Notes: generated by a model from the sequence alone, not told the origin. DNA of 63,123 nt, filler included, from Collodictyon triciliatum (GCA_043381765.1; 4 parts of 4 records of this genome joined end to end with filler, not necessarily neighbours in it); one strand, 5' to 3'. Counted from the whole stretch's first letter, positions 4,501 through 50,400 are shown. A program made the numbers and translations.

Positions 4501-7260
4501 ATTATCTTCACGGATGTAAAATCTGGGGGAAATCAATTCTTAAGCAGCTATAAATTTCGACGCAAATGATTTATCTTTACGATTTGACAGGCTCTTCTTC
4601 TGAACACGTTCATCAAATTCCACGACAAATATCCCTCGCTTCGCCGTGACATCGAGGCTGTGCTGAACTCCAACTCGAGCCACATCAACTCCGAAATTCA
4701 GCAACGTGCCTGCGAATATGCTGAGCTCGCTAAGCTAGGTGAACGTGTGACTAAGGGAACACTCGAACTTTTGCCTGCATTCCCAGAGAAGGAATCATCC
4801 CTTCATTTGCGCCTGAAGCAACGCCAGAATGAGACCAAACGCGCCGTTGCAGCTGAGAAAGAGAGAGAGGCAAGCGAATCTCTCATTTACCTTTATGTGC
4901 TGTCGGTGATTTTTATGCTTTACTGCTTACCAGTAGTAAACTTCATTGCTCCTCATCGAAAGAAAACCATGAAGAAGAAAAAAGGGATGAAAAGAAAAAT
5001 AATCTAACCATTCTCATTATTTTTTTCGTGTTTTGACTCATAGAAAGACTCGGAGGAAGAAGTGAAGGTCAAGTTGCCCTCGGAGCTGTAAGTTTTCAAA
5101 GCTGTAGCCGCAGGGCAGGGCGGGGAAAGTAGCTTTTCTTGTAAGATGTTAACTCGATTCTCATATCTTAGCCCCCAATCATCAGCGTCATCCGCCGCCA
5201 CTGACTTGTTGGGACTCGATGATATCCCTGCACCTATCCAAACGAGGTTACTTTTATTGACATCCTCGATTTTTTTTATTTCCTTTATTCGATTCAAAGT
5301 GTTGACATCCTCGATTTAATTATTTCCGACAACCTCACTTTATCAACAAAAACTCTACCGGACATACAGCACAAGACCAGCTGCCCCACTTTCATCCACT
5401 CCCTTCTCAACCTCTGCATCCACCTCTTCCTCCGTTGCTGACCTTCTACTTGGTCCTACACCATTGACCACATCGACTGCTCCTGTGACTCCCTCCTTCA
5501 CGCAATCAGTAAAGGCTGCACCGCCTGCCTCAGCTAGCTCTGACTTACTCTCCGACTTGGCAGATGTGCTGACGTCCACAAACTCGGCTGCGCCACTTGC
5601 TGCCTCTGGTTTGCTTACTTTTCTGGAATCACTTTCTTATTTTTGCTCTGGTATACCGCTTTTATTTTCTCTTTTCAGCCCTTTGTTACTTTTTGAATTG
5701 GAAACCTTGGCAGTAGAGCTCAGCTTTGTCGTTTTACTCAAATAATAGCCAATCTGTCAGCTTCGTATACCCCTCCTGCCAATGTCCTCGCTGCGATGAC
5801 GCCGGCACTCACGGCCTCAACTGTTGGAGTACTCTTTTTACTTTGATTTTTTCGATAAAGAAAAATTAATAAATGAGAATTATACTCATTGTCGGCTATC
5901 TTGATGCGTTTTGGGAAAATGTATAGTACTTTGGTATTTCTTTTATCAACAGACTATTTACTCATTAGGTACTGACACCCACCGCTGCGCCCAATCCTGC
6001 AGCGGATCAATTTTTCCAGCGACTTTGCCTCTACGCGGACGGTGTTTTGTACGAAGATGCAGCTATCCAAGTATTTTATTTTTCATATAATACGAATATG
6101 TTGATTTTATTTCACTATATATTTGATTGTAAAGTCCATGCACTATCACTGACCACTATCATTTCCCTCTTTCTCTTGTCTTCTATATTTTTTTTTTTAT
6201 AAATACCCTCCCAGATTGGTGTCAAATCTGAGTATCATGGTGCTACTGGGCGCATGAGCTTGTTTTACGGAAACAAGAATCGCATGGCTGCCTTGATGAA
6301 ATTCACTGTTACAGTTCAACCTTTCACAGGCATGGGAGAGAAAAAAAAATAATGGAGAATTAATTCCCTTTCCCACTCTTTATATCCTCGGACCGCCATA
6401 GGAACTAACTTTTATACTCAAATATACACTATTAGCCGTCAAGTTCCAACTTTCCCCGGTTCCTGATACCATCCAACCACAGCAACAGACGCAACAGATG
6501 TTCAGCATGGAATGTCTCCAAGAGTTTTTGGAGCCACCGCTTTTGAACATTCAATACATGTATAGGGCAGAATCTTCATTCCATCCGCTAGAATATTACT
6601 CATTTCCCCCTTTATTTCTGTTTAGTAATACATCACCCTCTTGGTAGATGATATGATTTTATCTATTATAGAAAGAAAAACTCGATACTAAAAAGCTTTT
6701 AATTTATTTATTTTTTTACTGTAAAATAGCCAAGAAGGACGCGGTAACACCATCATTGTGAAGCTACCTGTTGTCGCTACCAAGTTTTTGGAACCACTTC
6801 CGATGCAATCTGGTGACTTCTTCAAGCGATGGAAGGAAGTTGGTGAATCTGCTCCTCAGGAATACCAGGGAGTTCAGAAGTCTGCAAAGACTGGGGATAT
6901 TGCTCTATTGACCAAGGTTTCCCTAAAATTCGAGAGCCACTTGCATCCTTGTATTTTTTAAATAAAACCAATGGCGAAGATATTACTAGCCCAACATACA
7001 TCTTTATCTGAAAGCTTACTTAAAATATATATCATCAGATATTCACGCAAGGATTCAAGTTCCATAATCTGCCCAATGTGGACCCCAACCCGGCCAATCT
7101 GGTGCTCACTGCCCAGTTCTCTACCACTAGCGGTAAGACCCCCGCACTGATGCGCGTGGAAACAAACGCGAGCGCACAAATGGTCCGCGTGACTGCCCGC
7201 ACACCCAGCGGCATCCTGACCTCGGCTGTGAAGAGCTATGTCCTTCCACATCTCTCGTAG
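1569..7260 (+). CDS. AP2A: AP-2 complex subunit alpha (alpha-adaptin), about 20 exons
   Basis: Spliced translation gives [83 protein letters not shown], an S/P/T-rich hinge with DLL motifs, and an appendage ([30 protein letters not shown]). Stop TAG at 7258-7260. Confidence 0.97.
5257..5317 (-). mobile_element. Family A micro-retroinsertion (29 bp) with 16-bp target-site duplication
   Basis: TTGACATCCTCGATTT at 5257-5272 and 5302-5317 flanks an insert reading CACTTTGAATCGAATAAAGGAAATAAAAA on the minus strand. It lies in an AP2A intron. Confidence 0.8.
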
Positions 7261-47400: not shown

Positions 47401-50400
47401 GGTGGTATTTGTGCGGATTCCTGGTTCTTGGTCCATTTGCATTTGGGCAAAGAATTTCAATACTTGAGTGTTCACCTCCTTTTCTCTGAGCTGGAGCGAT
47501 GAATATGGATAAGTATTAAGCCGAGAGAGAGAGAGAGAGAGAGAGAGAGAGAGAGAGAGAGAGAGAGAGAGAGAGAGAGAGAGAGAGAGAGAGAGAGAGC
47601 ATCGACCGACCTTTGGAACAATCAAAACCATCGACTTTATGGTTAAATCTCTCAAAGCGGCCGATGTGTCTGTGAATCCATTCACCTACAAAAGAAAATT
47701 GGGATAACTTATCAACAACAATAAAAAGGTAAAAAGATAAAAAGATTAGAGCTCATAGCTATGGTTGCTTCATATTTTTGGTATGCTAAATCATACCATC
47801 TGCGGGAATATTTGGTCATTTACGAGACCAACAGGCAAGTGCTCATAGTAGCTAAAGGCAATAAAAATCGCAAAGTAATGTCAGAATGAATTATAGTATC
47901 ACAGCTCAGGCCTTATAATATGCAAGAAATTGATGCCAGTGTAAACCCGCCTATACATGGTTATATCATCAAAACAAAGAAAACCATGGATAACCTGTCA
48001 AGACTTTGCAGCAGGTGAATTCGAATGGCACGGTCGTTGCATGCAAATAGCTTTGTAACACAAGGGACAATATTTGTTTGATATTCCTCTTCAGTCAAAT
48101 GCTCCCCAATCTTCAAAAGAGAAGCAAGAACTTTTGTGTTCATTCCTTTGTTTAAAAAAAAAAAAACAAAGTGAGGCAATATACTCAGCAGGCGTGTCAA
48201 AGCAAAACGAAAAGGACAAAATAGCACAAAAAGCACAAAAAGCACAAAAAGCACAAAAAGCACAAAAAGCACAAAAAGCACAAAAAGCACAAAAAGTACA
48301 AAAAGCACAAAAAGCATGAAAAGGATAGAAATAAAAACAAAAAAGAAAAAAGGACAATCCTAAACCTATGTCATTTATATTTTTTTTCGCTTCAGTACCA
48401 GTTCCATATTGAAGTGCCTGGACCAGAATGGGCATTATCTTGTATTTCAGCATGGGTTGAGACATACTTTCCAGAAATTGAGGAAGTTTTCTGAGCAAAC
48501 GACGGATAGTTAAACATAAATATCAGAATTCACATGAGTGAATGCATGATAAAAGTGTTTCTAATTCATCTAGGGTGATTTGGGTGGTTACTTGAAGAAA
48601 GCTTCCTTCTCTTGGGAATCTTTTAGGGCCAGGTTCTCCAAGAACATGTTCACTTCGACAAGCTGCCGATTAAATCGATGGCATGAAAAATGCGTTAAAA
48701 AAAAAAAGAAAAGAAAAAGGGGGTTCCTAAAACTACAATAAATAAATAAATTAAACCTGAGTCTTGAAAAAGTCACTTTCGAGGACTTTGTTACAAGGAA
48801 GTCGTGACTTTGGGGCTTGAGTAAGAAGCTGCTGATACAACGAAACGAGTTTCTAATAGGTTATGAGCTTATCAGAGAGTGCAAATGCATTTGTAGAGGG
48901 GAATAAACCCATTTATGCCCAAATCAGTTGTTTTTTTTTTTTGATTTTTTTTGAAGAATTTGATATTGCTGATAAGAAAAGAATAAAACCGGAGGGATGC
49001 GTCCTATGTTTTTCAGTTCTGAAGATTTTCCCAGTGGCCCATTGAAGATTTCGTAGACAAGACATCCTTTAAGGTAAAAAGAAAAGAACACCATATGAGT
49101 GGATAATCTCTCTATTGAGTTCCCGTAATTTTCTTACAAAAAATTCACTGAATCAGTTTAACATTCTTTGACTCATAAAAAAAAAGCAGGAAAATTCCAA
49201 TAGCTTCCATTAAAAAAAGGGTAATTTGATTTTGAGATTAAAGTGTGTATAATAAAATATGGTGGAGTTAAACAAAAAATTCAGGTGAGTGATGTTTTCT
49301 TCATTCTTTCTCGTGGTATATCGTTCATAAGAGAATGACCTAAACTCCACGAATCTGCTGCCCACGAGGCTTCTGTGAATGAGCCCCAAGCTTTTTTGAA
49401 ATATTCAGGAGACTTGTAGACTTCAGGAATAAGGTCTGCATTGGCCTAGAGAAAAGGGAAAGAGGTTTTTGGTGAATGTGACATTGATGACGCCTGCATC
49501 ATTTTGTAAGGTTGAATGATTTAGGAACCAAAAGATTTTTCCCTTTATTCGATTCAAAGTGATTCAAGAACCAAAAGATAAATTATTAATTTTCAAACAA
49601 CCTGAATCACTTCGATATTAGATGTATCGCAAACAAGGTCGAGTCCGCCCAAGAGCCAATCTCCGGCTTTGTTGACGAAGATAGACTTTGGCGAGAAGCT
49701 CGCATGGATCATACTACAATCGATGTTGATGAAGCTCAGCGCGCGCTGTGATGTAACGAACCCATGGTTTAAATTTAATTGTTTGTATTTTTTTACGCAT
49801 TCAAAAAGTTATGAAGTTGTAGCAGAAAAAAAAAGTGGGCAGAAATCAAACACCGTACAAGAACTTGATAAAGTCCCCAGACGAGAACTTCAGGTTTGTC
49901 GTGGAGAGTGGGTAAAGCCTCGCTGAGTGGCGTGACAGAATCCGTGACGATATATATTGTCGATTCAAGTTCGACACCATCGAGATATCGAAGAACACTT
50001 GGGAAACGTATGGTTTTCATGCGCTTCAGTGCATTACGGGCAGCCTATGATAAACAATAATAATAATAATAATAATAATAATAATAATAATAATAATAAT
50101 TTTGTCTTGTGCAATTATATCAGTGAGCTGAAATTATAGAATGAATGAAATAATTAGGAAGCTTTGCGACATGTTTTGTTTTCTTCTGGTAATAGAGGGA
50201 TTGGGAAATGAGAGGGTTAAATGAGTCAATCGCACACCCTTCCTTCTGCCTCTGTGTGCTTCTTAATGTCAAAAGCAAAGATTGAGACAGGTACTCCGTT
50301 TTCCTGAGATTAAGAGGCAGTAAGAAAGAATGTATATATATAATTTGTTTTTTAAAAAAAAAAACATAAAAACATAAAAATGCTCTCGTTCTTTATTACC

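Follow-up and report, generated by a model that had tools for sequence, protein, structure and literature searches.

Copies of a short motif in the window

A very short A-tailed sequence recurs through a 63-kb stretch of the Collodictyon triciliatum genome (GCA_043381765.1; 63,123 nucleotides (nt) in all, four parts of its records joined end to end with filler), which was analysed at its full length and is called the window. Copies lie in introns of an alpha-adaptin gene, a PRMT gene and a gene with a HEAT repeat, and their relation to the 3' end of a long interspersed nuclear element (LINE) is the subject of this report. A preliminary description of the window had listed six exact copies of the 16-mer CTTTGAATCGAATAAA, and the motif count bore out each of them: 5284-5299(-), 27948-27963(-), 32003-32018(+), 37427-37442(+), 39945-39960(+), and 49544-49559(-). 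With up to two mismatches allowed, 7 matches were found against 0.22 expected, a number reached by none of 100 dinucleotide shuffles. There are no sites with one mismatch, and the single site with two mismatches lies at 20347-20362. Its sequence suggests that it is probably an older, diverged seventh copy, with the caveat that three mismatches or fewer would already give 2.3 chance matches. In a k-mer count of the window, CTTTGAATCGAATAAA was the sole non-low-complexity 13-mer family with at least three dispersed copies, and a count at k = 11 gave no further family with four or more copies. The copies, numbered 1 to 6 along the window with the diverged site as copy 7, are arranged as follows.

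Copy 1, 5257..5317, minus strand: duplication 5317-5302, CA, 16-mer 5299-5284, tail GGAAATAAAAA 5283-5273, duplication 5272-5257.
Copy 2, 27938..27963, minus strand: 16-mer 27963-27948 and tail GAGAAAAAAA 27947-27938; the flank match is T6 only, no clear duplication.
Copy 3, 31984..32042, plus strand: 16-mer 32003-32018 and A-rich tail AGAAAAAATAAA, directly 3' of an (AATA)20 array at 31917-31996.
Copy 4, 37427..37448, plus strand: 16-mer and tail GGAAAA, with a (TTA)23 array at 37449-37517 immediately after.
Copy 5, 39945..39967, plus strand: 16-mer and tail CGGAAAG; no A-run; flank repeat score 7, not significant.
Copy 6, 49517..49579, minus strand: duplication 49579-49560, 16-mer 49559-49544, tail GGGAAAA 49543-49537, duplication 49536-49517 (18/20 identical).
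Copy 7, 20331..20394, plus strand: repeat ATTGATTGTTTTG 20331-20343, ACG, CTTTGAAACAAATAAA 20347-20362 (2 mismatches), tail AAAGGGAAAAAAAA..., repeat ATTCATTGTTTTG 20382-20394.

Each copy had been described as ending in AATAAA plus a G/A-rich tail, and purine/A-rich tails do follow all copies: a tail of 6-14 nt stands behind 7/7; that of copy 5 is weak, and that of copy 1 may derive from the target. When the six exact copies were aligned together with 50 nt of upstream flank, the only invariant columns were the 16 of the motif and two A's of the tail, and the upstream flanks were unrelated right up to the motif edge. The window has no copy reduced to the first or last 10-15 nt of the motif. 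The 9-nt motif suffix TCGAATAAA occurs alone at three extra sites in the window, which is indistinguishable from chance. At one of them, 1428-1436, TCGAATAAA is followed by an 11-nt purine run, AGAGAGGGAGG; this could be an even shorter copy and is likewise indistinguishable from chance.

Genes and arrays around the copies

Gene context was established by homology for copies 1, 4, and 6 and was read by eye for copies 2, 3, and 5. An intron of the plus-strand alpha-adaptin gene contains copy 1 in antisense orientation, with Adaptin_N exons upstream and an Alpha_adaptin_C exon downstream, and the insert begins 26 nt past the donor ACGAG/GTTACT (donor G 5247). Copy 4 is in sense orientation in a PRMT intron, 54 nt past the donor G at 37373, and PRMT1 homology stops exactly at that donor. 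Copy 6, likewise in sense orientation, occupies an intron 42 nt past the donor TTCAG/GTTGTT (donor G 49601); its host gene is on the minus strand and has a HEAT repeat. We take the exons of this gene to be SCY1-like; one exon open reading frame (ORF) compared with solved structures gave no match. For copies 2, 3, and 5, candidate GT sites were seen by eye 32-95 nt upstream. Copy 5 lies downstream of the last PRMT-like ORF, probably in a 3' untranslated region (UTR) or in intergenic DNA. Copy 7, absent from the preliminary description, is just 3' of a (TTG)n array and a scaffold gap. The earlier placement of five copies in introns, one of them antisense, stands by homology for copies 1, 4, and 6, with copy 1 the antisense one, and is a reading by eye for the others.

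The three homology-supported intronic copies, two sense and one antisense, thus sit 26, 54, and 42 nt past the 5' splice site, in introns that measure about 250-700 nt by eye. There may be a preference for insertion or retention near intron 5' ends, a suggestion made post hoc from three cases. Copies 3, 4, and 7 adjoin simple arrays: (AATA)20 at 31917-31996, (TTA)23 at 37449-37517, and (TTG)n at 20232-20330. Either A/T-rich arrays may be targeted or the tails may seed arrays; the arrangement fits an A/T-rich target preference in a region very rich in microsatellites and proves nothing.

Direct repeats flanking the copies

Two perfect direct repeats had been reported, 16 bp at 5257/5302 and 12 bp at 49525/49568, and both were exact on recheck. 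The repeat around copy 1 (5257-5272 / 5302-5317) is identical at 16/16 positions. The 12-bp repeat around copy 6 grows to 20 bp with two mismatches (49517-49536 / 49560-49579); because it extends to 20 nt, the TGAATCA in front of copy 6 counts as target DNA, outside the element. Flanks were scored without gaps (match +1, mismatch -3, the upstream repeat ending no more than 3 nt from the motif) and with gaps, by local alignment of 28 nt upstream with 48 nt downstream. The ungapped scores of copies 1 and 6 are 16 and 12, and a score of at least 12 was found at 0.43% of 3000 non-periodic control sites in the window. The gapped scores of the seven copies, in order of position, are 17, 10, 6, 10, 9, 7, and 14. 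Scores of at least 10 thus occur in 4/7 copies and at 1.2% of the 3000 window control sites. A second control took 131 chance occurrences of the same 16-mer from unrelated contigs (metagenome, prokaryote, and viral); the highest score among them was 9, and 0/131 reached 10. The flanking repeats are therefore in excess over both kinds of control, window sites and chance 16-mers.

Two of the scores of 10 belong to copies 3 and 7. Copy 7 is flanked by a 13-nt repeat with one mismatch, and its gapped score is the one reached by 1.2% of the 3000 control sites. Copy 3 has a candidate 19-nt duplication with three mismatches (31984-32002 / 32024-32042), whose gapped score of 10 is not cleanly comparable with the control since it sits in (AATA)n-like repetitive sequence. 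The copy 1 repeat can be read in more than one way. The sequence GGAAATAA precedes the upstream repeat and also starts the apparent tail, and the similarity runs 8 nt beyond the 16-nt repeat (5301-5327 / 5257-5283). There may be a duplication of about 26 nt around an 18-nt tailless insert, or the RNA tail may have paired with a look-alike target. Duplication lengths are variable, at 13, 16(-26), 19 (doubtful), and 20 nt. The inserts bounded by duplications measure 23-38 nt, though copy 1 would come to 18 nt if its duplication is the long one. The targets are A/T-rich and begin AAAT or ATCT after TT, with 0-2 nt of microhomology at the 5' junction.

Relation of the motif to a LINE

A scan of metagenome contigs for the exact 16-mer returned at least 119 loci. 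Among the matches listed, 118 of 119 look like chance and resemble neither the window nor the remaining locus, L116, a JGI contig of 1157 bp that is the only family member. The 16-mer followed by NRRRA had 12 matches in prokaryote genomes and 1 in viral contigs, all bacterial or viral and at chance level; the prokaryote and viral 16-mer matches were reused as negative controls for the flank scores above. On its minus strand L116 carries an ORF with the Pfam domain zf-RVT (E 1.5e-7, 32.4 bits against a curated cut-off of 27.5), which marks the zinc-binding C-terminal part of non-LTR reverse transcriptases. Past one frameshift the ORF continues to ...ITDFFPVLASPR*, and a 91-nt 3' UTR follows. 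The UTR ends ...CTACACTTTGAATCGAATAAAGGAAAAAAAAAA, that is, in CGCTACA + CTTTGAATCGAATAAA + GG(A)10, and beyond the A-run a GC content of about 50% gives way to an AT-rich flank. L116 holds at least 1044 nt of the LINE, with the upstream part cut off. The longer end proposed in the preliminary description, ...TGAATCACTTTG, was wrong; the LINE reads ...CGCTACACTTTG. Compared with the window by blastn, L116 matched the six exact copies alone beyond E 0.01, and the match at copy 1 spans ACA, the 16-mer, and the tail.

Relatives of the L116 ORF were found with HMMER among all representatives, 14 in total. P0002-P0008 are LINE fragments from several assemblies, with 59-98% identity to the ORF; P0016 and P0017 count as the closest fragments. 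Four full-length proteins, P0010-P0013, have 1226-1275 aa and about 30% identity; Exo_endo_phos, the apurinic/apyrimidinic endonuclease (APE) domain, and RVT_1, the reverse transcriptase (RT) domain, are present in 4/4 and zf-RVT in 3/4. P0010 aligned with human L1 ORF2p over residues 3-871 (E 3e-57). No longer relative came up when the L116 ORF was used in a word-based protein search; a CAD-like exon used in the same way yielded one transcriptome protein only. Because L116 joins an RT-type ORF to a UTR that ends in the motif, and because its relatives carry APE and RT domains, the motif, AATAAA included, is identified from these sequences as the predicted 3' terminus of an APE-type, L1-like LINE. 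The preliminary description had foreseen a long RT element with the motif at its end; L116 supplies the zf-RVT C-terminus and the UTR ending in the motif, and APE and RT come only from distant relatives. The same LINE is presumably present in the Collodictyon genome, as the identical 16-19 nt suggest.

The L116 UTR also contains a degenerate second 16-mer, CTTTGTATGGCATAAC, 25 nt upstream of the terminal one, at an identity reached in 2/5000 UTR shuffles. It hints that the terminal unit was reiterated earlier, in a module-like fashion.

Degenerate second 16-mer, L116:139-154 (nt 1004-1019 of the reverse complement), minus strand: 12/16 identity.

A filled site and its empty paralogues

The protein P0014 (136 aa, from a 561-nt ENA contig) has this LINE C-terminus, lengthened by 14 residues, and runs ...SPEREINIFFSFIQFKEREINIFRLES..., with EREINIFFSFIQFKEREINIF as the insert region. 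The reverse complement of the motif encodes FIRFK, and P0014 has a peptide of the FI(R/Q)FK type in which a Gln codon has replaced CGA. The plus-strand reading of copy 1 in the window likewise places an insert peptide between duplicated LTSSI. P0014 therefore appears to contain an antisense micro-insert with the T-rich complement of a tail, flanked by duplicated EREIN(IF), about 15-21 nt. The insert site is empty in L116, P0002, P0003, P0005, P0008 (alignment A1), and P0016, which read ...SPEREINV(A/S)(R/M)LES... or equivalent, and none of the other 16 proteins compared has a P0014-type insert peptide. Empty sites with a single copy of the repeat, suggested when the motif was first described, are thus available at paralogous sites, where one filled site with a duplicated flank faces six empty ones; the comparison is between paralogous LINE copies at the protein level.

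Over its first 30 residues P0014 shows no relation to the LINE (alignment A1), and the LINE part starts about 480 nt from the 3' end. This LINE is an ordinary 5'-truncated copy, and therefore the family also makes normal truncated copies.

A common 5' end

The preliminary description held that all copies begin within a few bases of one point, and this was sustained: the starts span 4 nt. The seven window copies and the P0014 insert start between -3 and 0 relative to CTTTG, and 16-19 nt of the element are present. CTTTG is preceded by ACG in the copy at 20347, by CA in copies 1 and 6, and by A in copies 3 and 5; copies 2 and 4 have no extra base. Counted by base, A precedes CTTTG in 4/6 exact copies and CA in 2/6, in agreement with the ...ACA of the LINE. 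All seven copies in the 63-kb window measure 16-19 nt; neither longer copies nor any of 10-15 nt were found, and the 5' ends of the window copies and of the P0014 insert are not scattered along the parent. A template-defined event must fix the end of the copy.

Other features of the window

The segments 17186-18200 and 18354-19360 form a tandem duplication (period about 1.17 kb) in which many 16-mers are shared at a constant offset (1168-1181). The duplication overlaps with the beginning of a minus-strand gene, the product of which starts with MGCGSS and has an (AEEEAAKKK)n repeat. Scaffold joints of the form N44-TTAATTAATTAA-N44, with an all-frame stop linker, lie at 20132-20231, 36372-36471, and 52636-52735, and all three coincide with a microsatellite or homopolymer. 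N runs are also present at 30579, 41271, and 56935, and the assembly breaks at simple repeats. Among sequencing runs, seven shared sampled words, with a best share of 0.21. Base composition shifts abruptly: GC content is 50-55% at 9-12 kb and 15-18 kb compared with 32-35% over 21-45 kb, and the high-GC stretches hold low-complexity ORFs rich in Ala, Arg, Pro, and His. The whole window is extremely rich in microsatellites and in poly(A) or poly(T) runs 50-100 nt long.

Discussion

The micro-copies very probably originated as LINE tails copied by target-primed reverse transcription (TPRT). The footprint of an APE-type non-LTR retrotransposon, first suggested from the A-tails and direct repeats, is supported by L116, by the target duplications, and by the filled and empty sites around P0014. 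In the fuller account, which we favor with some reservation, an L1-like LINE (APE + RT + zinc-knuckle) left dead-on-arrival retrocopies of its extreme 3' end, each ended by a fixed stop. The LINE endonuclease would nick A/T-rich DNA, and the freed 3' end would anneal to the LINE RNA at its purine/A-rich tail, priming reverse transcription. The cDNA would end after 16-19 nt of element at a point fixed by the template, just before CTTTG or up to 3 nt upstream. The short cDNA would then be joined across the staggered break through 0-2 nt of microhomology, leaving target duplications of about 13-26 nt. The copied RNA is presumably the LINE RNA itself. That the fixed end reflects an early stop on full-length LINE RNA is a close call, which we would place slightly on the negative side. 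As to the cause of such a stop, our preferred guess is that the RT fails to move past an RNA segment held at initiation, and the copies would be abortive-initiation products.

In several respects the copies resemble 5'-truncated copies of the L1 clade. They represent the 3' terminus of an element whose relatives have an APE, an RT, and a C-terminal zinc-binding domain, and they share AATAAA with an A-rich tail, variable duplications (about 13-26 nt), A/T-rich targets, and 0-2 nt of junction microhomology. They differ in containing only 16-19 nt of the element, with eight starts within a 4-nt span, whereas L1 truncation points are normally scattered over kilobases. Truncated LINE 3' ends with duplications are textbook material already, and the uniform, ultra-short length is the unusual part. 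Repeat annotation applies length cut-offs that exclude copies as short as these. There is also a likeness to short interspersed nuclear elements (SINEs) of the UnaSINE1 type, non-coding units that share only the 3' end of a partner LINE; eel UnaSINE1 is said to borrow the UnaL2 LINE 3' tail and to be mobilized by the LINE machinery. SINEs have an internal Pol III promoter and a length of 80-500 nt, and a body of 16-19 nt has room for neither.

Two published cases come close. A poly(T) insert in a human NF1 exon is presented, in the parts of PMC3219598 that concern it, as an endonuclease-type, L1-mediated insertion that is almost tail only, so TPRT can abort within the first bases. As described there, that insert was a single sporadic event without element body, unlike the recurrent defined length and recognizable 16-mer found here (PMC3219598). 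Passages of PMC2887409, citing Malik and Eickbush, state that truncated RTE tails have been mistaken for SINEs and are associated with microsatellite families. The present copies are like those RTE tails, as portrayed in these passages, in that short, duplication-flanked 3'-end copies mimic a small non-autonomous family, in the short 3' UTR of the parent (91 nt here), and in the position of several copies beside arrays. They are unlike them in that the parent is L1-like with zf-RVT, that RTE copies keep some RT coding sequence according to the same passages and the window copies keep none, and that the microsatellite link here is only positional (PMC2887409). A search of open-access literature by title and abstract opening found no recurrent LINE-tail product of a fixed length of about 18 nt. 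The motif string was not found in the open-access literature text that was searched.

Several observations weigh against a LINE tail copied up to a fixed stop. No LINE body was found in the window by blastn or tblastx with L116, and L116 and the P-numbered proteins come from metagenome assemblies and so from other genomes than the window. Eight starts within 4 nt are unlike the prediction of plain TPRT and need an extra cause. Just upstream of the stop in L116 there is no stable hairpin (fold z = -0.23 against shuffles), and no ribozyme was found in the L116 3' end, where Rfam gave only two sub-threshold lncRNA matches. Copies 2, 4, and 5 (3/7) lack a convincing duplication. The tail of copy 1 may be target sequence, leaving an insert without an A-tail. 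The identity of the six listed copies over 16 nt would also fit selection on the motif.

The template may have been a short RNA, about 16-19 nt of LINE 3' end plus tail, copied to its natural 5' end by the LINE machinery; we regard this as possible and rather unlikely. Such an RNA could arise from a LINE transcript that was cut or trimmed, by an exonuclease running up to bound ORF2 protein or by guided slicing, or it could have a tiny dedicated source; this reading corresponds to the tiny retroposon of the preliminary description. A short template would explain the 5' end fixed within 4 nt without any RT block, and no hairpin or ribozyme accounts for a stop. The inserts of 23-38 nt (perhaps 18 nt for copy 1) are of small-RNA size, and the degenerate second 16-mer in the L116 UTR hints at a modular terminal unit. 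However, the A, CA, or ACG before CTTTG matches the upstream bases of the LINE, so the template extended at least 1-3 nt past the 16-mer, and a self-propagating tiny element is implausible since 16-19 nt are too few for a promoter. The preliminary description had left the choice between a tiny retroposon and an RT stop near a LINE 3' end; the evidence leans to a fixed stop without settling the matter. For copies 2, 4, and 5, fragments of LINE 3'-end cDNA or RNA might instead have been patched into breaks by end joining, independently of the endonuclease. A significant flank repeat is lacking in 3/7 copies, copy 5 is nearly without an A-run, and copies 3, 4, and 7 adjoin break-prone microsatellite arrays. 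This capture is improbable all the same: it covers a subset only, with duplications in 4/7 copies, it still requires the same fixed-length fragment, and the missing duplications could be short or decayed, notably beside arrays that expand and contract.

Other explanations dispense with retrotransposition of the motif altogether. If the 16-mer were a selected host cis-element, an intronic polyadenylation or splicing-regulatory signal that the LINE merely shares, this would account for six copies identical over 16 nt with none at one mismatch, for the AATAAA within the motif, and for the three homology-supported intronic copies 26-54 nt past the 5' splice site. We consider it highly improbable, because target duplications bracket the inserts, the motif forms the LINE 3' terminus, P0014 has an antisense insertion inside a LINE ORF, one intronic copy is antisense to its host gene, and a diverged copy is present (20347). 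Some inserts may have been co-opted later by the host. The assembly is scaffolded, with N44-linker-N44 joints and many gaps at microsatellites, so a linker or adapter remnant with flanks duplicated at gap closure was also considered. Such an artefact is scarcely credible: no copy touches an N run, and the same sequence occurs in independent metagenome assemblies (L116 from JGI, P0014 from ENA).

Three standard classes were tried and rejected. The copies are not SINEs, since the shared sequence is 16-19 nt, the flanks are unrelated directly upstream, and there is no Pol III promoter or tRNA, 7SL, or 5S head. A miniature inverted-repeat transposable element or other cut-and-paste DNA transposon does not fit a 16-mer with a tail, without inverted termini, and with duplications of variable length. 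A genic polyadenylation or terminator motif does not fit three copies in internal introns, one of them antisense.

Returning to LINE-tail retrocopies with a fixed stop, a stronger proposal can be made, which we regard as doubtful at present. The last ~18 nt of the LINE RNA with its tail might be a discrete minimal retrotransposition unit, the smallest known, produced by RNA processing or by a built-in abortive RT step. There might be thousands of copies, missed by annotation, that favor intron 5' ends and A/T-rich microsatellites. If this were true, the copies would preserve, across the genome, a natural record of the first step in TPRT. Should the uniform length be a small-sample effect, the finding reduces to truncated LINE tails of an ordinary family. 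If the pattern extends across the genome, the DNA records a defined early failure or end point of TPRT that is otherwise seen in vitro or as rare events. LINE activity would then scatter many intronic inserts of about 25 bp that bear AATAAA and lie below the size that repeat finders detect, and the impact of LINEs on gene structure would perhaps be underestimated, here and possibly in other genomes.

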